A DNA stretch of 51,090 bases, counting the filler, from Circinaria calcarea (lineage: Eukaryota): assembly GCA_051942165.1 (NCBI GenBank). It is 2 parts of 2 records of this genome, joined end to end, with 100 filler letters (N's around TTAATTAATTAA, not from the genome) between each part and the next. Parts side by side here need not be neighbours in the genome. Positions count along the whole stretch, not along the records: positions 1 to 25,522 come from JAVECS010000090.1; 1 more part is not named here. The stretch is one strand, 5' to 3'. How positions within the stretch are numbered: position 1 is the stretch's first letter; every line of letters starts with the position of its first letter. A program made the translations under genes and the position numbers. Positions 4,012 to 41,308 of the stretch are shown piece after piece. Under the pieces are notes generated by a model. The model was not told the origin of the DNA, made no database searches, and saw only the letters and a program-made list of their open reading frames with translations.

Positions 4012-6944
4012 TCATTTCAACTGTCCGGCTACATCACGCCCTACTTTGAATGCAACTTTCGCACGTGGGAGTCGCCCTTTGGCATCCTGTGCATCACTTA
4101 GTCCATATGATAAGCAGAACAAGGTCGAAGTCTCATCTTGCTTACCCTTGTGCCATCTCGATACGCCAATTGCTTATCGACCAAGCAAGGAATTGCAACC
4201 TTCGGAATCCCCATCATCTCGTCATGTTCCCTCAGAGCCTCATGATTACTCCCCGCCGCTCCTGTCCTGATCAGAATTGCTTCTGATGTTGACGATCCTG
4301 CGCTTCTGTCATCCGGATTGAAGCTCCTGTCAGAAGCGTCACTTGTCAGCTCACTTGGCTCTCGCCTCTCAATGACAATTGCAACCCCTCGATCCGTTCT
4401 AGACCCCTCCTCTACATGCCTGTTCTTCTCCCGATGTGGAAATATCCCTCGCTCTTTCCGAATGTTTGCCAAAACGCTCCCAAATTGCGCTTTTCGCGGA
4501 GGCCTGTTTGCAATCTCAGCCTTCTTAGCTTCCGCATCGAATAGCAGCCTATCAGGATGTAGCTCAGGGGCCGCCGCAAATAGATCACGGTGGCAGTATC
4601 CTTGTTTCCATTGCGGAATACTAGTGTGCGGTATACGCTTCTTGAGCTCTTCAACTTGTCCTCGTAGTTTCGCGATCTCAGTTTCCTGGTCGCTTCGCTC
4701 TCGCGTCGATATTTGCAGCCTTAGAACCTCTATTTCTGACTTTGCGTCTTTTAACTGGGACAATCTATGGCGAAGGACTTCCTCTTGCCGCCTGTAGGCC
4801 TTACGCATACCCTTGAGTTCGGACAGTGGCGTTAAACTGGCTGTGTTTTGAGATTGGATAATAGTTTCTTGTTTGGATCGAGCTTTCTCTAGTTCTTCCC
4901 TTAACTCATCTAGTTGCAGATGCAAGTCTCCCAATTCTCGTTTATGCTTGTCTCTTTGCTTCAGGTGCTCTGACTTACGTTGCTTAAGTAGGTCACGGAG
5001 CTCTTTGATATCCTTTTCATAAGACTTAAGTTTCTTCTTCAATTCTAAATTGCGTGCCCGATATACGATTTCGGAAGGCTCAGGTGCTTTAGCAGCTATG
5101 ACGAGATTATGACTGCTCTGGCTCTTTACTAAATCGTGTACTTCTCCTCTTTCCTTATTTACACCAAGAAGCTTATCCGAGAGATTTGACTTTATAGATG
5201 GAGAATCTTTTGGTTTGGCTCTGTAGGAAGTAGAGGGTGTCATTGAGAGAGAATACAAATCTGGACTCCCGGAAGAGTTCGGCCTTCTTGGATCCGCCGA
5301 GACAGATGCTGGTGCCTTTTGGTTAGGTTCTACAAAGTAGTGGCCTCCGTCCATATTTCTGCCCTGGGCGCCATTGGCTCGAAGAGGAGCTTGTGAACGT
5401 TTATGAGTGGCAAAAAGTCCCGCACCTGGAACCCTAAGGTCGCCCCATGATGGTTGTACTCTGATGTTTGTACTGGTTTTAGATTGTGCATAATTCCTAG
5501 AGGCACTATCAAAAAGAGGAGGCGGAGATTCCGGAATGACAACCTGATTAGCCGCTTCGTTCGTCAAGTAAGGACTCTGCGCGGCTTCCGCATATGCATG
5601 ATTACCGTTGCGTTTGCATATGGAGCTGGGTTGGTTAGCCTCAAGTCAGGAGCCATAGATTGCGAATATACCATAATCTAACGGTCCCACCCTGAGAAGT
5701 AGCCCCTATAACCTTCTTGCCACATCTTCCACACACGGCCAAGTTTGTGCATGAAGCAGAATCCTCCGGTTTTTGGTCTTCAGTTGATTTTGTTATACCA
5801 TTTTTATAGGTATCATCGATCATTGCCATGACTCCTGGAGACTTTAACTTGATATCAACTTGTACGGCAGCATCTGTATGTGATTGAACCTTTCGAAATC
5901 CAACCTCTAAAGGTGGACTATAGGGCGGCGACAACTCCCTAGTTTGAGGGCCGTAAAGACTAGATTTGTTGAAATTGCTTGGCTGCGAGACGTCTTTTTC
6001 ATGGTTCAGCGTACCTGAAAGAGTCTGCACGGTATCAGCTATCCCTTGATTTCTGTCATTCGTCATTGGCGTGTCTCCAGGTATCTGCAACGTCGATCCT
6101 AGGACATTGGTATGTCTCCCAAATTCAGCGATTTCAGCAGGAGAAGCTTGACCTGTTGCCATCATTTGTATCAGATACACAACTCTTGGATTGGCGGACG
6201 CTTTTGTCATAAGCTCGCCAACGGCCAGGGAATTCGAGCTATTGTTGGCTCGCGGCCTGGGCATGACATCTCGTACAGAGACCCCATTCGATGAAGCGAC
6301 GGACGGTAAAATACTGACACCCAAACCGTTATGTGGAACACCAAAGGGGTTCATTGAGGTTGATGTAGTAGTGATTTTGCCGGTAGATTTTGGTATGGTA
6401 ACCAGAGGATTTTTTTCATCATTTTCAATTGATTGAACAACTGGAGGTTCTGTAGTCCTGCGTCGTTTTGCTGGCCGCCCATAGACGGTCTGCAAGTCTT
6501 GGGGAGTTTCAATACCATTAGGATCGACTAGGGGCATATTTTTATTAGATGAGTCCGTCATAGGTCTGTGTCTAGTGCTTTTGATACATCGAGTACAGCG
6601 CCAGTCGGACGTAAAGGCATCGCTGAATTCGTTAGCCCATTTAATTAGCCGAACTCGCCCAATTGACTGTGCTTCACCTACCTCCGATAGCCTTCAGCAC
6701 TAGAGGGATGATAATCACAGTCCGGGTGATACCGTCGCTGGCATAATGTGCACTGCCTCAGCGGCGGTGAAAATGCAGTGGTTGGAGGCTTCAAGCAGAC
6801 AAAACACCGATTGAACCTTGACCCGACTCCCTTTGAAGATGACGCGGAAGGGCTGTACTCGCTCAAGCCGGATGCAGTAGAAGTGGCATTTTTGTGGTTA
6901 CTTTCACTGACCCGTCGGAATTTGGGTAGTGGCAACATCTCCAT
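4012..6944 (-). CDS. PHD-finger protein with a second C2-C2 zinc motif and a coiled-coil region
   Basis: Three ORFs joined by introns 6681-6623, 5671-5626, 4145-4087. Splicing completes CFVC...CTLCQRRYHPDC...WRCTRC (PHD) and CGRC...CSIC. Long K/E/L heptad segment; ends DAKGRLPRAKVAFKVGRDVAGQLK*. Start codon uncertain. Confidence 0.8.
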
Positions 6945-7181
6945 ATGCCTATCCTAGGCACTAGCCATATCCGATGATTCACATCCAATTACTGCTATTA
7001 CTCGACGAACATTCGTTTCCTGTAGATACTACAACTATCGATTGAGCTCGAGGGGGTTTACTCATATGGCTAATAAGCAACTTCAAGGAGTGCTTATCAA
7101 AAGCGGCAGTCGGGGAACCTCGATCCCTTATCGTTCGAAGCATCTAGTTTCTCGTCCGGATCCTTTAACGAGACCCAAGGC

Positions 7182-7842
7182 CTATATTTATCATTAGCAA
7201 ATCGCGTTTCGGGAAGGCATAATTCTCTTATATAAAAACGGGGAGCTTAGTGGAGCTGTAATTCTGTAGCCGGCTGGCGCACAGTAGTCCACTGAGAGTC
7301 CCAAAGATGCCTCAGGTCTTTTCAGTTCCATAAAGTCTTCAATCTACTCGTCTTCCCAGGTTCTTAGCCCTCTTTTATAGTGAACTCCACAGAAGTAAAT
7401 TCACAGTGCGATGAAGCGGAGAAACTCAAGGCAGTCAAGAATCAATCTTGCTGTCATCCCGCCTATCCAGTTGAACCTTGTACACCACTGCCATTGACGC
7501 CGACTCTTTGAGAAATATCGAATCAAGGTCCCAAGAAGTGGTGCTTTGGAATGAGTCTAATTTACACCTTGAATCCAGGATTTGACAATCCATGAATCTT
7601 GGAGAGCCCATCTTGCCGTTCAATGTGCCAGCCGTTAAGGTTCCAAACATGCAATGGTTTCTCCCACTCCGCTGATCCGAAGGCAAGAACCACGAGAAGA
7701 CGCCACAGCAGTCAGACCTTTTACCATGTGTTCATCATTGGCATCTTCAGGAGTCACGTTCCCGTACCACAGAACGAGAAGCACAATAAGGGAAATAGAA
7801 GCAATCCAAAGAACTCCACGTCATGTGGATGTATGAACTTAC
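7182..7842 (-). other. Host intron of the box C/D RNA (non-coding or 5'-leader transcript)
   Basis: Consensus donor GTAAGT at 7842-7837, branch GCTAAT 7198-7193, acceptor TAG 7184-7182; 661 nt, far longer than the ~50-nt introns nearby. Confidence 0.65.
7299..7752 (-). ncRNA. Long box C/D guide RNA (snoRNA/scaRNA-like) with predicted U5 and U2 snRNA targets
   Basis: 13-bp terminal stem (7752-7740 with 7311-7299, two G-U pairs); box C AUGAUGA 7738-7732; guide UGGUAAAAGGU 7726-7716; D' CUGA 7715-7712; C'-like UUGAAGA 7342-7336; guide AACUGAAAAGA 7327-7317; box D CUGA 7315-7312. Confidence 0.88.
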
Positions 7843-8342
7843 CATGATCGAGCTCCTTTAAAACAACGCTGTGTAGGTTCCAACGTTTTACAAATGTACC
7901 ATCAATGTAAAGGGTATATAAGGTCACAAATCGCCCGAGTCTTGGGAGGTGTCCATCTAAAGAGTGTGACTCAATTCTGAACAAGAGAGATTGAAATGAA
8001 GGTTACCAGCAGCAGCTGTAATTCCCAACTCCACTGAGCGTCAATCTGCAGTATTTGAAAGCACAACCGTGGTAGCGACAGTGTAGTGAAGAAATGGATA
8101 TCAGGTGAAGAAAGGAAAAAAGGGCGTACTGGTCAGTACGCGCATGGAATGTTTAAGATACTCGGCTAAGGCGTCTATTCTAAACCTTGTAGAAAACAGG
8201 GCTGAACCAGGGCCTGCATTTAAATGTCAGCGCATGTGAATATTACAGTATGTGTTGTTGACCGGATGTCATTGTCTACTAGTTGCATCTACCTTTGTGG
8301 ACGTTCGTAGTTGTCATCATTCATTACTAGGATTGCCAAATT

Positions 8343-11119
8343 ATGGACTTCCTCAAATCTGCGGTAGCATCTGCTATCTCCAAAGGTCCACCTTTCCCCT
8401 ATACTTTTGGTGATAAAATCGACCTTGAGCATTCTATTTGGACGCTGTATAATGGCACAAGACGGGTACCGTACCTCAACAACTCTGTTCAATACGTACT
8501 GACGTAAGTTGTCCTAGGAAGATGGTTCCGCTTGCAGCGTTTTTAGTTTCGACATCACAGCGAACAAGTCCCGTCTGCCCCTTGCTAAGAATATGGTGCG
8601 GAAGTTGAAGACGTTAAGACACCCCGGAATTATCAGACTACTTGATGCCGTCGAGGTGTGGACAATATCTGTCTAGAGTAGAATGTGAGGACTGATTTGA
8701 TCTCTAGACTGATACGTATATTTACATTGCTACTGAAAGAGTAATCCCTCTTGCCTGGCACGTTCGGCGAAAGAGTCTAAGCGTGGAAACCTCAAAATGG
8801 GGCTTGTTTACAGTTGCAGTATGTGCTGCACGTTCAAGAAGGAAGCGCCGTCCTCATGTTACGCATAGAATACACTCAGGTTCATCAATGACGAAGCCTC
8901 CTCCGTGCATGGCAACATTCGGATATCTTCGATTTTTACCAGCGAAAGCGGGGAATGGAGGGTCGGGGGTCTGGATATTCTGTCCTCAATGAAAGATGAG
9001 GCAGCTATCATCTACGTTTGTATTCTGCAATGTTCCCTGCGACCGATTCTGATCCTCTCCCTAGACGTATGGAACCCTCACACCTAACCTTAGCCAATAT
9101 ATGCCACCAGAAGTCTCCAAATCTGGTTGGGATAGCATTAAAGGGAACCCAACTTCTGCTACAGACTCCTATGCGTTCGGGCTTTTGATATTTCAGGTTT
9201 ACAACGGCGGATCACTTAGCAGTGACCAGATTGGCCAAACCAAGAACGTACCGCCCAATATACACCAAAGTTACAAGGGACTACTCAACACAAACCCCAA
9301 AGCAAGGTTGAGCGTAACACATTTTCTCGAACAGGGACGTAGGAATGGTGGGTTCTTCGAGACACCTCTAATAAGGTTATCAGAGGGAGTCGAGAGTCTT
9401 GGTTTGAAAAGCGACGCAGAGCGCGCAGAACTCCTGAGGTCTGTCATTTGCCTGAGGTTAGCAATGCTATGGTTGATTTCATCTTAGTGAACTTGATGAA
9501 GTATCGGAAGACTTCCCTGAAGATTTCTTCAAAATGAAAATTCTACCAGAACTCCTCAAGTCTGTCGAATTTGGAGGTGGCGGACCTAAAGTGTTTGGTT
9601 ATGTAATGAAGATTGGAGCCAAGTTAACTGAGGATGAATACGAATCGCGAATTACACCTGTCGTCGTCAGACTCTTTGCAAGCCCAGACCGACAGATGCG
9701 AGTATGTTTGTTGGATCATCTTCCTTCCATGATCGATCATCTCTCGCAGAAGATTGTTAACGACAAGATATTTCCACAAATGGTGGGTTCCGTTGGCCAG
9801 CATCTGATACTTTCGCTGATTCTCATAGGTAACTGGCTTCAGCGATATTGCCCCCGTTGTGCGTGAACAAACTGTCAAGGCTGTATTAACCATAATCACG
9901 AAGCTATCAGATCGGACAATCAATGGCGATCTGTTGAAACATCTTGCAAGAACGTCAAACGACGAACAGCCTGGTATTCGAACCAACACAACAATCTGTC
10001 TTGGAAAGATTTCTCGCAACTTAGGAGTCAATGTATGTATGGACCGTGAAACCATGAGCTGGACACTAATATATCCATAGACCAGGCAGAAGGTTTTAGT
10101 TACGGCTTTCACACGATCGTTGAAAGATCCATTTGTACACGCGCGCAATGCAGCCCTCCAAGCATTAGCAGCCACTTCTGACCTATTCCCGGAGGAAGAC
10201 TGCGCAAACAGACTATTACCAGCTTTGTGCCAATCCTTACTTGACAAAGAAAGGTATGATATCATTAAACTCCTATTGAGCTCAGTTGATTTGGAGTAGA
10301 CTTGTTCGAGATCAAGCCAATAAGACCCTCGATATTTACCTTAGTCGGGTACGCAAATATGCAACTACCATGCCAGAAACAGCACTGCCTCCACAAAGCT
10401 CCGGTATGGCTAATGGGGCGACACCACGAATGGGTACTCCCCAGAATGACACTTCTTGGGCGGGCTGGGCAATTTCTTCTTTTACCAACAAAATAGCTTC
10501 CACCAGTGGTGAGATCGAAGCAAAGCCGAACGGGAACACCTTGGGCGCTCCCGTCAACGACCGCAGCTCTAATATATCCCCGGCGCTAGTTGCTGAAGCT
10601 GTCCGTAGTGTGAGCACAGCTGCTTCAGCGTCGACCCTGCATAGACAAGCCCTTAAAACAACGACTGCTTCCAAACCCGTGTTGACGAGAACAACAACAG
10701 AGCAATTCTTCGGGGACGCTCAGGTGGAAGATGACGAAATCGATAACGCCTGGGGTGAGATGGCCGAGGAGTCTTTTTTCGATGCTCCCACAACTCCAGC
10801 CGTCTCCCCGCCTGCGTCAACGACGCCAACCATGAAATACGATGACGGTGGAGAGCCAGATTTCGCCGGCTGGCTGGCTGCACAAGCTCAGGCAAAATCT
10901 AAAGCACCATTACCGAAAGGTCTATCGAAGGCCTCTACCTTGGCGAGCGGGCGGCCTGGGCCGGCTCGGGTTACGACGACCGGTAGTGTAGGCCCTGGGG
11001 CTGGAGCAAAGAAGCTGGCGAGTACGGTGTCGAAACCTAAGGCCGTGCCTGCAAAGAAGATTGATATCAAACCGAAGGAAACTGCGGCGGATGATGATTG
11101 GGGTGATGCGTGGGATTAG
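8343..11119 (+). CDS. CEX1: SCY1-like pseudokinase with HEAT repeats (Cex1/SCYL1 family)
   Basis: MDFLKSAVASAISKGPPFPY..., LRHPGIIRLLD, VHGNIRISSIFTSESGEWRVGGLD, HEAT-like DEQPGIRTNTTICLGKI and LKDPFVHAR, acidic C-terminus DDDWGDAWD; several short GT-AG introns (first 8466-8517). Confidence 0.9.
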
Positions 11120-35769: not shown

Positions 35770-37067
35770 ATAACGGTCGCGACGAGGTCACGACGTCATG
35801 GATGGGATTGCAGTCTGCGGGAAAGAGCAAAGGGTTCTATCGGGAGTCCAGGAGTAGACTTGGAGGTTGTTGATATCCACTGCTTGATCTGCGGTAATCT
35901 CAAGCTCCTTTTGTTATGTAACCCATAGCTTGTCCGACTGACTGGACATCCGAATGATAGCGCACGTCAGAAAGCGATGTTCGCCTTTACATTTCACCCA
36001 CCATCCTCTACCATGCTATTGAGTAATGGACCTCTTTGGTGATTGTCATGAACCGGTAACTCGCTAAATGTGTAGATGGTCTGGGACAGGGTTCTGAAAT
36101 CTTTGTTCTAGTCTTCTATGTACCATGAGGTTATTGATCATGCTCACCTTGGTGTTGAGTATGGATAGACCTAGGTAACTCGGAACAGACTAAGATTACT
36201 AGTAGCAGATCTAAATCCAGCCCTATTAGGTCACCGTTGTTATACATCTAGGGGGGGATCCTGGTGTTTGAATGATTGGCACCAATTTATCTCGATCTCG
36301 ACAGGGAGCACGGGAATATTATCGACTACGGATTAAATGGAAGATTGTTGAATATCCAACGGACACTGAAGACTCTCTTGCTTGAACTTCCGGGCTGTGA
36401 CAGTAACGTTCTACAGTCCTAGTACTTTGTTCGATGAAACTACTACTATCTAGGTAGTCAACCTGCTATAAAACATCCTAAAGCCAGGGCACGCCGTGGA
36501 ATAAAGCCCTGGGCTGTCCAGCAACTCGATTAACCCCCAAGCCTATTCCCGAGGTCGGGTTTGATGCGCAAGATAGTTAGCAGAGGATGTAATGGCTCGA
36601 CATCGCTACCTAACCGGTTTACCTTCCATTCTACCTCTTCTCTCGGGATTCTCAATGTCCCTGCTGCTACTTGGGTTGGTCTATTTCGACCAGTTACAAT
36701 ACGTCATTGCTACGGGATCACCTAATCCCGAGAACAAATTATGCAACTGGATGTGCATTTCCAAACCGTTCCATTGTACATGCTACTAGTTAGCTGGCCC
36801 AGCTTGTTCTACCGATGTAACATGAAGCTCCAAGTATACTGTAGATCGACAGTGCAAGACCTGGATGCGGCTGCAGGAGAAAGCTCTGTGATCAAATGTG
36901 CGACCCTGTCCACCATGAACAAGTAGCTTGCTCTCCCTTCGTCAATGAGCGAGCATATTCAGGTCCCCCCACTGTTGCTGACTAACACCCATCCTCCATT
37001 GTACAAGATAAACACATGCAAGAACCCTCCCGCTCAGACTTGATGATTATCGGAAATTAAGGATCTG

Positions 37068-40000
37068 ATGATTGTCGCGGACATGGATATCAACTCGCTC
37101 CTTTCGCCGCAGGACTCACCTGTCGATGAGACACCACCCGCCCCGCCGCCATCAACCATGGCAGCTACCACCAAAAGGACCCGAAGAACCAAATCATCGG
37201 CTCCTACCTCCAAAGTTGGCTTCTCACCCCTCTCAAAGGCTACACTCCCATCCGATCCACAGGTACACAATGCCGCTCCCAAAAGTCGACCTCCACTACA
37301 TTCACCGCCTTCAAGCGGCTCGGGACCACCTATACTCTTGAAATCAATCAGCTCACTCAGCACATCGTCAACCGAGAACATGAAATCGGATCGGCAGCTG
37401 TCAACATCAGGCATGGATACACTGGCAGACCTAGCCTCCATGCAGCACCATCAACAGGAGGCGAGGGCGAACGCTGGAGGGCTGCGAAGCACAGAGGTCT
37501 ACGACACACAACTTGCCCCCGCAAAGATCCTTCCGAACCTACATACCTTGTCTCGAACCCCGTCAATCTCTCTGGGCTCCTTGGATCTCAGTATGCAGGA
37601 TGCTCCGACACAGACTCCTCCACGGACATTCACCGCTACATCTTTATCCGAGTCGGATCTCGAGACGGTTGCACGGCTTGTCAGCTACCTTGCTGAAAAT
37701 CCATACGCATACGAATCACATGTACAGCTAGTCAAGCTGTTGCACCAAGGGCTTATCACTCATGTATACGGACTTTCCGCATCCACAGCTCACCGCGATC
37801 CCCATACCTATGATCTTCTTCAAGATCTTCACCAGGCAACCGCGGCCATGGATCTGAGGTTCGCTTTAGGCGAAGATCTATGGGCAGATAGGCTGCAAGA
37901 TCAGCAGCTTCTTGCAAATTCCTTGGAGGATTGTATCGGGGTGGCTGAAACATACAAGAAAGCTGTGCAAGAGGAAACGGGAAGTACCAAGCTTTGGCTA
38001 ATGTATGGTAACTGGATGCTTTCGCTTTATAACACGGCACATGGTTACGAGACAAGCTCCGGGGATATGAGCGGAACCGTGACCTTGGCGAAAGCATGGT
38101 CGGACGAAGATAAGCTGGACGGCAAGGAACTGTTTGGAAGGCAACAAGTGCTAGATACTTGGCAGCAGGGCGCAGAAGAGACGAAGTTCCGGATCCACGA
38201 CAGCCATCTTGTATGGGATCGCTACACTGAGTTTCTGATGCAAGATTTGGGTCAAGCGGCAAATGTCGAAGCAATTGCTGCAATGAAGACTCATTTCTTG
38301 GATCGGTTGCAAATTCCCCATGCAACGTGGGACCAAACCTTTCAGTTGTTTTCCACCTTCATGTCGACGTACGATAATGCGATGTACGAGGGGACCATGG
38401 TGACGGCAAATCGTCAATGCGCACATGCAAAGACCACCTACGCGTTGCGTGAAGGTTTCGAGATGAAGCTGAAGAGAGCGGTAGAAGCCGGGGATAAAAG
38501 CTCTGAGTGGAATGTTTACAGCGAATACCTGGATTGGGAATTGAGTCAGAGTCGTAAGAAAAAGGTATTCAACTATGATCTAATAAATGCACTGTACCAG
38601 CGCGCCAATATCAGGTTTCCAATAGATACGAATTTATGGGAAGACTATCTCATGTTTTTTATTGACGAGGTCGACGACAACCATCGTCCACATATCTTAG
38701 CGCTACCGGTACTTGAAAGAGCTACCAGGCATTGCCCTTGGTCGGGGACGTTATGGCAACAGTATCTGCAGGCTGCAGAACGCGAAAACCTACCTTTCAC
38801 GGATATTGGAGAAATCAAGCACAAAGCTACGAGTTCCGGGCTCCTTGATGCTGGGGGTATGGAGGAGATTTTGAAGGTGCATACAGCTTGGTGTGGATAT
38901 CTGAGAAGGCAGGCTTTCCGCCAAGATTCAACCGATGAGGAACTCGACGTCGCAGAGGTCGGTATCAGATCTGCTATAGAAGACATGGAGACTCTTGGAC
39001 GTCAAAAGTATGGCAAAGACTACAAAGGAGATCCGCAGTATCGACTAGAGCGGATTTATATCAAATATCTAAGCCAAAGCCGTAACTGGAAAGGGGCACG
39101 AGATACCTGGAAAAGCCTGGTGGCTCGTCATGGGGATAGCTATGAGTTTTGGATGAGGTACTACGCATGGGAGATGCTTACTTGGGGGAAGCTCGTGCAC
39201 TATGAGAACGCTGCACCGAATCAGGTTCCTAGCGAAGCAACAAAGGTTCTCCGCCAAGCCGTTAAGAGGCCTAATATGGACTGGCCAGAGAAAATTATTG
39301 ATACCTTTTTGAGCCATTGCGAGGATCATGAGAATGTTGCAGAACTCCAGTCCGCCTTGATTCTGACAAGGAAAGCAATGAAAGCTGTGACTAAGAAGAG
39401 AGCAAAAGAGGCGCTCGATGCTGCCGTGACTGCTCAGTTGCACCAGCAATCATACTTTGCAGAAGCAACCGGACTGCAAGATAGTCCAAATGGCGGTAAG
39501 AGAAAGCGAGGAGATGCTGAGAATATAGAGGATGAGACGATTGCCAAGAGGACTCGATCGGATGTTGTGGAAACGCGGGGAACAGCAACTGAAGAGCAAC
39601 CACCGTCTGCCAATAACTCGCCAAAACGAGATCGGGAGAATGCAACGGTGATAGTGAAGAGTTTGCCACCACAAACGACGGAAACGAGAGTACGGCAGTA
39701 TTTTAGAGATGTAAATACCTTGACTCTCAATGTTATATCCACCATGGTGCTAATCGGCTTACAGTGCGGTACAATCAATAGTCTGAAGATTTCGCTCGAC
39801 AATGACGGTTCATCCGCTACTGCCACCATCGAGTTTGACTCGAAGGAGGATGTCCTCACAGCGCAAACGAGAGACATGAAGATATTCGATGGCCATTCTA
39901 TAAATGTTCAGGTGGGCAGCGGCTCGACCCTATTTGTCACTAATTTCCCGAAAACCGCGGATGAGGCGTATATTCGAGAAAAGTTTAGCCAGGTAAGATG

Positions 40001-41308
40001 TGCGTACTCGAAACTAGTACATGGGGCTTACGCGAAACCAGTATGGTGAAATCGTTGACGTACGGTTCCCTTCGCTGAAATTCAACAACGCACGGCGCTT
40101 TTGCTATCTACAGTTCAAGTCACCAAGTCAAGCCCAAGCAGCTACCGAGTTGGATGGTAAGAAAATAGACGGCAAATTGACATTACTCGCGAAGATTTCG
40201 GATCCTACCCATAAGCAAGAACGAAGCGGGCCTCTGGCTGAGGGACGGGAGATTTATGTGTCGAATGTGGACTGGATATCTACGGAAGGCGAGATTAGGG
40301 AAGTATTCTCGAAATACGGCAAAGTGGAAAGTGTTCGCGTCCCAAGAAATCTCGCAGGCAAGAGTAAGGGTATAGCATTTGTGGTATTCTCAAATAGGGT
40401 GAGTCTTGACCATTCGATGACCTACTTAATCCAAGCTAAATTTGTCCTAGAACGAAGCAAATGCGGCTCTTGAGTTAAACCTTACCAAATTCAAGTCTCG
40501 ACTTCTCAATGTTTCCGTTTCGACTGCCAAGCCAACAACCCGCACGACTACGGTCTTCAATCCCACCTCCCCACTCTCCACGTCCACCTCACCACAACCT
40601 GAGCCAGCTGCCTCAAATGGTACCGTACATCATTCTCCCATCCTTCCATCCACCGTCTCGCAACCGCCTTCCTCTGACCACCCAACCCGCGAAGAAATCT
40701 CCTCCCGTACATTTGCCCTTTTCAACATTCCCGACACTGTCAACTCCGATCGCATCCGCGCTCTCGTGGAGCCTTATGGTGCTGTCGTTAAGATCACCTT
40801 ACGACACGATCACCGAGGTGCGATTATCGAGTTTGCGGATCTGGCTGGCGCGGGAAAAGCAGCATTAGGATTAGACGGATATGAGATTTCACCGGGCCGG
40901 AAGATCGGGGTCGGTACGGTAGGGGAAATGATGAAGGAAAAGGCGGAATGGAGAAGTGATAGGATAGGTGTCGGTGGGGGTGCAGGGAAGAAGGAAAAGG
41001 GGAAGGGAAATGGAGAGGAGAACGGGGAAGAGGAAACGAAGAAAGCATTGCAGGCCGGAGCCGTTATTCGGAGGCCGGGACAGGCAACAGGGAGAGGAGG
41101 CAGGAGAGGGCGTCTGGGGATCAAACGAGGCGGAACGGGACTGAATGGGAGTAGGACGTTAGGCCATGCTGGCAGCGGCGGCGGAGACGAAGGAGCAAGG
41201 ACCGAAACCCATGAATCATTGGTGGAAGGTAAGGAAAAGGAAAAGGACAAAGAAAAGGGTGGGCCGAAGAGTAACGCGGATTTCAAGGCCATGTTCCTCA
41301 AAGGCTAA
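37068..41308 (+). CDS. PRP24: U4/U6 snRNP recycling factor Prp24/SART3 (HAT repeats + RRMs + Lsm-interaction motif)
   Basis: HAT-like repeats (LERATRHCPWSGTLW), RRMs (TVIVKSLP, TLFVTNFP, RRFCYLQF, KSKGIAFVVF), C-terminal KSNADFKAMFLK; introns 39711-39764, 39993-40041, 40399-40450. Confidence 0.94.

Follow-up and report, generated by a model that had tools for sequence, protein, structure and literature searches.

A scaRNA-like composite box C/D guide RNA in fungi with predicted targets in U5 loop 1 and U2

Guide RNAs for the modification of small nuclear RNAs (snRNAs) are, to our knowledge, well catalogued in vertebrates and flies and barely in fungi, and the model yeast Saccharomyces cerevisiae is not known to carry 2'-O-methyl groups on any snRNA. 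Here, we describe a locus in a 51-kb stretch of DNA from Circinaria calcarea (GCA_051942165.1; the whole stretch of 51,090 nucleotides (nt) is called the window) that specifies a box C/D RNA of ~440 nt with two guides, one complementary to U5 loop 1 and one to U2, and with an H/ACA-like hairpin between its internal boxes. Its architecture is that of a composite guide RNA resembling the vertebrate small Cajal body RNAs (scaRNAs).

The closest described RNAs are human. Loop 1 of U5 carries the highly conserved motif GCCUUUUAC, and the human loop reads Gm37-C-C-U-Um41-U-Psi43-A-Cm45, where Um is 2'-O-methyluridine and Psi pseudouridine (PMC4824092). Um41 is assigned to scaRNA5/6 and Um47 of U2 to scaRNA28 (PMC7960923), which bears out an initial sequence-only reading of the window that had named separate vertebrate scaRNAs for these two sites. 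A single human RNA, SCARNA10 (U85), guides both Cm45 and Psi46 of U5 loop 1 (PMC5733568). Among filamentous fungi, Neurospora crassa CD29 guides U2-Am31, as verified by primer extension, and CD11 (U6), CD26 and a U5-Am62 guide are further snRNA-directed C/D RNAs (PMC2780460); in Aspergillus fumigatus, Afu-191 is a C/D guide for U2 Am31/32, and the screen that described it states that no C/D RNA targeting U1, U5 or U6 was found. The CD29, CD11 and Afu-191 RNAs resemble the present one in being intronic or intergenic C/D RNAs for snRNA methylation, but they are 80–110 nt long, lack an internal H/ACA-like domain and have other targets. As far as the accessible parts of the two surveys extend, neither contains a guide for U5 loop 1 or for U2-U47. 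Similarly, no fungal U5-Um41 guide, U2-Um47 guide or U87/U88 homologue was found in the searched literature, which included the accessible portions of the fungal snoRNAome and SnoBIRD papers; scaRNAs are not mentioned in those portions of the snoRNAome paper, and motif searches in the supplements of the T. rubrum and N. crassa papers returned nothing.

The RNA locus occupies positions 7752..7299 on the minus strand of the window and was read as the reverse strand. In 5' to 3' order of the RNA, the box C/D elements are the following:

7740..7752, minus strand: 5' arm of the terminal stem (13 base pairs (bp), including G-U pairs, with 7299-7311)
7732..7738, minus strand: box C, ATGATGA
7716..7726, minus strand: guide 1, TGGTAAAAGGT, 11 nt, complement of U5 loop 1, abutting D'
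7712..7715, minus strand: box D', CTGA
7682..7711, minus strand: 5' strand of the connecting helix, pairing with 7344-7369 and juxtaposing D' and C' (minimum free energy (MFE) fold and RNAalifold)
7344..7369, minus strand: 3' strand of the connecting helix (RNAalifold)
7336..7342, minus strand: box C' (C'-like), TTGAAGA; family consensus nTGA[A/C]GA
7317..7327, minus strand: guide 2, AACTGAAAAGA, 11 nt, complement of U2 UCUUUUCAGUU, with one C between guide and D
7312..7315, minus strand: box D, CTGA
7299..7311, minus strand: 3' arm of the terminal stem, partner of 7740-7752

Every element named in the sequence-only reading, that is, the stem, boxes C, D', C'-like and D and two 11-nt guides, was thus located. 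Box C near the 5' end and box D near the 3' end are joined by the 13-bp stem, and the internal D' and C' boxes are both present, C' departing from UGAUGA at one position. The RNA sequence contains no further CTGA between D' and guide 2, so that box C has no nearer partner. Each half of the RNA, namely C, guide 1 and D' on the one hand and C', guide 2 and D on the other, occurs only once in the window when up to three mismatches are allowed, and none of 100 dinucleotide shuffles matched either half. The 454-nt stretch has an MFE of -157.3 kcal/mol (z = -4.18 against 100 shuffles). The RNA region is flanked downstream by a minus-strand gene and on its other side by a plus-strand gene starting near 8345; it contains no long open reading frame (ORF), consistent with the earlier statement that the element is not visible to the ORF track.

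Conservation was evaluated in metagenome contigs, which were scanned with a pattern made up only of a C box, a 2–8-nt gap, guide 1 and D'. The scan retrieved 70 loci, in 22 of which CTGAAAAGA, followed after 0–2 nt by CTGA, was found 320–680 nt downstream; by our own arithmetic, the chance of such a distal guide 2 core with a box D is ~4e-5 per locus. Together with the window, these 22 loci amount to 21 distinct sequences, which were grouped by eye into ~13 divergent metagenome lineages plus the window and in which the C-to-D length ranges from 365 to 713 nt. An alignment of 14 representatives varies in most columns but holds four features fixed: C' (in most sequences as nTGA[A/C]GA), guide 2, D and a block of the form G[TC]CAANGGC-8 nt-ACA in the interior. 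The 9-nt core of guide 2 was the criterion for family membership, so its constancy partly reflects how the loci were chosen; this does not apply to the co-occurrence in 22 of 70 loci, to the A preceding the core (present in all 21 distinct sequences except L043), to C', to the internal hairpin or to the stems. Conservation of boxes and guides in relatives had been named at the outset as a point on which the prediction could fail, and both are conserved across the ~13 metagenome lineages.

The secondary structure of the RNA was further assessed by covariation. Applied without guidance to ten full-length homologues, RNAalifold returned the terminal stem and a long helix that closes the insert between D' and C'; it also returned an internal hairpin, with its lower stem of 8 bp and the base of its upper stem. 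Over 29 pairs, 90.3% of the cells were paired, compared with 34.7–43.2% when the 3' partners were slid by 1–3 columns, and the covariation score was 0.560 against 0.070–0.123, a contrast that is somewhat flattering because the structure was derived by RNAalifold from the same alignment. Both sides had changed in 19 of the 29 pairs, spread over all five helices, and neither the percentage of pairing nor the covariation score was attained by any of 500 shuffles. In the terminal stem (helix 1), changes on both sides were found in four of five pairs, and compensatory changes are also present in the connecting helix (helices 2 and 3 of the count).

One segment of the connecting helix, ~7695-7686 with 7360-7352 on the minus strand (alignment columns 59-72 and 451-463), is strongly conserved in sequence, its consensus being TCTCATGGTT with AACCTGAGA and one bulged U. 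As this conservation goes beyond what pairing needs, the segment may be a protein-binding site. Moreover, the end of guide 1 with D' (AGGTCT, 7712-7717, minus strand) is the exact reverse complement of the end of guide 2 with D (AGACCT, 7312-7317, minus strand), and RNAalifold paired the two ends through six pairs in all ten homologues, four of them via G-U. This pairing is probably a by-product of both targets having a C followed by a run of U; less probably, it might serve auto-inhibition.

The predicted target nucleotides were assigned with the D'+5 and D+5 rule against conserved snRNA motifs and the printed yeast U2 sequence. Counted back from D', the fifth nucleotide of guide 1 lies opposite the second U in the U5 loop GCCUUUUAC, the equivalent of human Um41, and the loop motif and the SCARNA6 alignment described below agree on this position. 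For guide 2, the fifth nucleotide counted back from D lies opposite the second U within the U2 stretch UCUUUUCAG, that is, yeast U48, the equivalent of vertebrate Um47. Yeast U2 residues 31–78 contain UCUUUUCAGUG (PMC4712673), and yeast U2 numbering is one ahead of vertebrate numbering in the region of the guide 2 target (PMC5733568), so that yeast U48 corresponds to vertebrate U47; the last letter of guide 2 mismatches a G of yeast U2. A box C/D guide should have an antisense element of at least 10 nt that ends 1–2 nt from D or D'; when the U5 loop motif and U2 as printed for yeast are taken as the targets, the two guides agree with this rule. Because the rule applied to these motifs agrees with the human assignments, the positions first proposed, Um41 in U5 and Um47 in U2, hold. 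Judging from the invariance of the guides and the general conservation of snRNAs, the U2 and U5 of this organism would be expected to match the guides as well.

The RNA had also been proposed to be intronic, and this is supported by splice and branch motifs that flank it both in the window and in its homologues. In the window, the putative signals are as follows:

7837..7842, minus strand: putative 5' splice site, GTAAGT, ~85 nt upstream of the stem
7193-7198, minus strand: putative branch site, GCTAAT, 113 nt after box D
7182-7183, minus strand: putative 3' splice site AG (of a TAG that ends at 7182)

Within 200 nt upstream, a regular-expression search found GTRNGT in nine of the 14 representatives, and inspection by eye found GTAAGC or GTAAAT in three more; L015 and L031 have no obvious counterpart. 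A branch-site-like NCTRAY lies roughly 55–75 nt after box D in 13 of the 14. A TATA-like TATATA is located near 7925 in the window, ahead of the GTAAGT.

Comparison with Rfam, which had been suggested as a check, gave a divided result: nothing reached the gathering score, and the best match below it is to the guide for U5-Um41. This match, obtained under permissive settings, is SCARNA6 (human U88, RF00478) with 22.8 bits and E = 4.8e-4; membership in SCARNA6 by the Rfam criterion would require the gathering score of 68, which the RNA does not reach. In the alignment, the C box, guide and D' are almost identical in letters, and 229 internal model positions are skipped. The 3' half of the RNA matched no family in Rfam even at E up to 10. 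The RNA shares with SCARNA5/SCARNA6 (U87/U88) the C box, the U5 guide, D', the predicted target U, an intron-encoded location and a large helix-closed insert between D' and C'. In contrast to them, it is ~440 nt long against a model of 265 positions, has an insert that cannot be aligned, carries a U2 guide, resides in a fungal host, has its ACA far from C' and has no recognisable Cajal body box (CAB) signals. To human SCARNA28 (PMC7960923) it is likened by the predicted target position of guide 2, U2 Um47, alone, this guide being a separate RNA in humans.

Taken from the sequence and its conservation, the locus probably encodes an intron-encoded ~440-nt box C/D guide RNA with an embedded H/ACA-like hairpin that would direct methylation of U5 loop 1 and U2. 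Several observations weigh against this interpretation. No match at the Rfam gathering score was obtained in the window or in 20 homologous loci, and the SCARNA6 score lies far under the gathering score, with the first ~40 nt alone matching. A length of ~440 nt is unusual for a C/D RNA, the C' box differs from UGAUGA, and the putative branch site in the window lies 113 nt past box D, farther than in the homologues. Furthermore, the conservation of guide 1 among the retrieved loci is a consequence of how they were ascertained, and a related group (L012, L045 and L064) has a different second guide. Finally, U5 and U2 of Saccharomyces cerevisiae are listed without 2'-O-methyl groups in the accessible part of PMC7960923; therefore, the predicted Um sites are undocumented in fungi.

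These last points also bear on the strongest alternative, in which the locus encodes a real box C/D RNA whose guides pair with other RNAs, or which acts as a chaperone or in processing, rather than in U5 and U2 methylation. This alternative draws on the fact that the targets were taken from conserved snRNA motifs only, on the unmethylated U2 and U5 of S. cerevisiae as just cited, and on the large internal domain, which has no proven role. However, guide 1 is nearly identical in letters to the human U5-Um41 guide, both guides stand at the canonical distance from D' or D and fall on sites that are methylated in vertebrates, and guide 2 is invariant over ~13 lineages whose sequences have otherwise diverged. 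We therefore regard such a different role as unlikely and retain U5 and U2 methylation as the predicted function.

The domain of ~330 nt between D' and C' holds two internal hairpins:

7558..7627, minus strand: upstream (5') internal hairpin, lower stem 7627-7619 with 7573-7565 (single-sequence folds)
7563-7558, minus strand: H-box-like AAATTA after the 5' internal hairpin, fitting ANANNA
7479..7544, minus strand: H/ACA-like 3' hairpin, lower stem 7544-7537 with 7489-7482 (RNAalifold and covariance model)
7536-7530 and 7496-7490 (CAATGGC), minus strand: pocket strands of the 3' hairpin
7481-7479, minus strand: ACA of the 3' hairpin

The 3' hairpin is well conserved. An alignment of 18 sequences contains a lower stem of seven pairs, six of which show changes on both sides. 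A covariance model of the hairpin gave one match in the window (E = 7.9e-19) and matched 21 of the 22 family loci (E from 8.8e-12 to 2.5e-22), L063 being unmatched; on L012, L045 and L064 the match was weak (E = 0.31), and the remaining retrieved loci, including the non-fungal U5-guide loci, gave none. In the model-fitted alignment, which is biased towards its model, 82.4% of the cells were paired compared with 34–57% when slid, with changes on both sides in 12 of 15 pairs. ACA directly follows the lower stem in 20 of the 21 distinct sequences (AAA in L063). The strand on the 3' side of the pocket is CAAUGGC; most sequences have U as its fourth letter, L022 and L037 have A, and L031 and L057 have C. 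The strand on the 5' side has YGG or AGG as its last letters. The modelled hairpin, whose lower stem measures 8 bp, whose pocket strands are 7 nt each and whose pocket top is 14 nt from the ACA, has the geometry of an H/ACA pseudouridylation hairpin. Its ACA does not lie 3 nt from a mature 3' end, since ~135 nt separate it from C'; composite scaRNAs likewise have this domain in an internal position.

The 5' internal hairpin behaves differently. RNAalifold returned no consensus pairs in this region, the hairpin being seen only in single-sequence folds, and its lower stem could not be aligned in a single register across clades; for these two reasons, we do not claim a canonical two-hairpin H/ACA domain. 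At the H-box position, where the window has AAATTA, most homologues have ACAnnn lacking the final A, as judged by eye. Manual comparison of the 5' hairpin pocket with the printed yeast U2 stretch gave no convincing target. The vertebrate Cajal body signals are a CAB box, UGAG, located in the apical loop of an H/ACA hairpin, and, for C/D scaRNAs, long GU repeats. Here, a CAB-type UGAG was found in the apical loop of none of 18 hairpins, and GU/UG runs of more than three units were absent. Gao et al. 2021 describe orphan motifs, their 'intergenic structures 1, 3 and 4', each a single hairpin with an H box, which could overlap with internal hairpins of this kind. The description of the locus as a long dual-guide box C/D RNA therefore stands for its C/D architecture and both guides and falls short in having missed the H/ACA-like hairpin, which makes the RNA a composite one rather than simply a long C/D RNA.

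The prominence of this hairpin raises the alternative that the internal hairpins form an independent H/ACA-type RNA, with the outer C/D parts non-functional or acting as a processing scaffold. The 3' hairpin with its ACA is indeed among the best conserved and best covarying parts of the locus. Nevertheless, the outer stem, boxes C, D', C' and D and both guides are equally conserved, the connecting helix covaries, more than 100 nt of conserved structured RNA follow the ACA with no 3' end there, and the upstream hairpin and H box are poorly supported, all of which make an H/ACA-only RNA very unlikely compared with the composite guide RNA. The C/D boxes are short, and a chance juxtaposition of such motifs in an intergenic or intronic spacer, with no RNA gene, could be entertained on that ground, but it is effectively refuted by the distal guide and box D common to 22 of the 70 loci, the covariation of three helices and the absence of any match in 100 shuffles, so that the earlier judgement that chance was unlikely can be strengthened: on this sequence evidence, chance origin is effectively excluded and the RNA is a real conserved one.

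The pocket of the 3' hairpin was also compared with U5 loop 1. In H/ACA RNAs, as in one described example, the 3' side of the pocket pairs 5' of the target uridine and the 5' side pairs 3' of it (PMC5473140), and eight guide–substrate pairs are quoted as the minimum (PMC7960923). With the pocket placed on GCCUUUUACCA and the fourth U as target, eight of nine Watson-Crick pairs form in 13 of 18 distinct hairpins and seven of nine in the other five, a fit that is post hoc because the best of four registers was taken. Most hairpins have a U-U mismatch at the first loop U; in L022 and L037, an A at this position completes the pairing on its side of the pocket. In the L012 group, the pocket strand differs and the fit to the U5 loop register is poorer. 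Inspection by eye of the nucleotide before TGG revealed no pattern of covariation between the guide and the pocket 5' strand. Eight of nine Watson-Crick pairs would arise by chance with a probability of ~1e-4 per register and site as a rough estimate; on this estimate, the fit is meaningful for the U5 loop specifically and would not stand out among all cellular uridines. The uridine placed in the pocket is a pseudouridine both in yeast (Psi99) and in human (Psi43). In the yeast table of PMC7960923, as far as accessible, U5 Psi99 (GCCUUU-Psi-AC) has Cbf5p as catalyst and an empty guide column. We tentatively suggest, as a possibility on the doubtful side, that the RNA may be a fungal three-in-one guide, with a C/D part that would place Um on U5 loop 1 and U2 and an ACA hairpin that would serve as a Cbf5 guide for Psi99/Psi43. 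This would be reminiscent of SCARNA10 (U85), in which one RNA serves both a methylation and a pseudouridylation in the U5 loop, as proposed here for Um41 and Psi43; it differs from U85 in that other nucleotides are targeted, the fungal pseudouridylation is a prediction from the pocket fit, and the fungal ACA lies more than 100 nt before C'.

The genes around the RNA were also considered. A PHD-like finger ORF (C-x2-C ... C-x2-C-x4-H-x2-C) lies at 6678-6953 on the minus strand, and a motif search placed such an ORF 660–1140 nt after the C box in three lineages, namely the window, the L012 group and the L022 group. At a threshold of 1e-5, Pfam gave no match to the ORF of the window. Searches by tblastn of three downstream window ORFs against the 70 loci gave no match at 1e-3; therefore, conservation of the host gene is only a hint, one that would place the RNA in a 5' untranslated region (UTR) intron of an orthologous PHD-like gene. 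Elsewhere in the window, a match to the Pfam family Fungal_trans, a fungal-specific transcription-factor domain (E = 2.3e-11), supports the fungal origin of the DNA. In addition, two plus-strand ORFs, one at 37047-40049 with HAT/TPR repeats and an RRM and one at 40451-41308 with an occluded RRM followed by RRM_1, resemble, taken jointly, a U4/U6 recycling factor of the Prp24/SART3 type whose gene is divided into exons; their only tie to the RNA is the theme.

The 70 retrieved loci contain other RNAs with the same U5 guide. In L012, L045 and L064 (~1480 to 2170 in L012), the U5 guide is accompanied by a recognisable internal hairpin; CATAAGGC forms its pocket strand, with AGTGGCAA and ACA coming next, and a CTGA is preceded by a second guide of another sequence, CTTTTGTCAACGAT. 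A second U5-guide family of ~300 nt (L007, L008, L024, L033, L038, L044, L050 and L067; match at around 1500 or at another position of the locus) shares its C box, guide and D' with the present RNA. Immediately past D', its sequence forms a helix, TGTCACAG/CTGTGACA, with the stretch that leads into C', and a CTGA is preceded by a second guide, CAGTRCAGATAT, whose fifth position would fall on yeast U2 C41, the equivalent of vertebrate Cm40. Its members gave no Rfam match at the gathering score, and by their sequences they look like non-fungal composite scaRNAs, possibly cnidarian. L030:1475-1800 contains an RNA of ~290 nt with the same U5 guide, a 7-bp terminal stem and a second guide CAAGTTTTCAAT followed by CTGA; this guide looks complementary to what we take to be the U4 sequence around Am65. 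The second guide therefore seems to switch snRNA targets between lineages. Furthermore, L039:1126-1260 and L070:688-820 contain a C/D RNA of ~105 nt with the same U5 loop-1 guide and without the long insert or the U2 guide, so the U5 guide also occurs in a canonical short form in some lineage.

In the proposed mechanism, the RNA of ~440 nt would be encoded by an intron of a minus-strand fungal gene, probably in the 5' UTR of the gene with the PHD-like ORF, and would be released by splicing and exonucleolytic trimming. The terminal stem and boxes C and D would then assemble the C/D core proteins, including fibrillarin/Nop1, and the long covarying helix would bring D' and C' together. The guide at D' is predicted to pair with U5 loop 1 and to direct 2'-O-methylation of its second U (human Um41), and the guide at D to pair with U2 immediately 3' of the region that recognises the branch point and to direct 2'-O-methylation of the Um47-equivalent U. 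Between D' and C', the covarying hairpin with its ACA would give an arrangement like that of the vertebrate composite scaRNAs U85, U87 and U88.

The RNA described here is a scaRNA-like composite guide RNA in fungi, of a kind that escapes both ORF-based annotation and the Rfam gathering thresholds. If the three-in-one proposal is true, it would also be a candidate for the guide of the U5 loop pseudouridine. If the predicted function is correct, the contacts of U5 and U2 in the catalytic core would be modified in filamentous fungi in much the same way as in animals, and the composite C/D–H/ACA design would not be an animal invention or would have arisen twice. Aspergillus, Neurospora and their relatives would then offer a tractable genetic system for the roles of U5 and U2 modifications in splicing.

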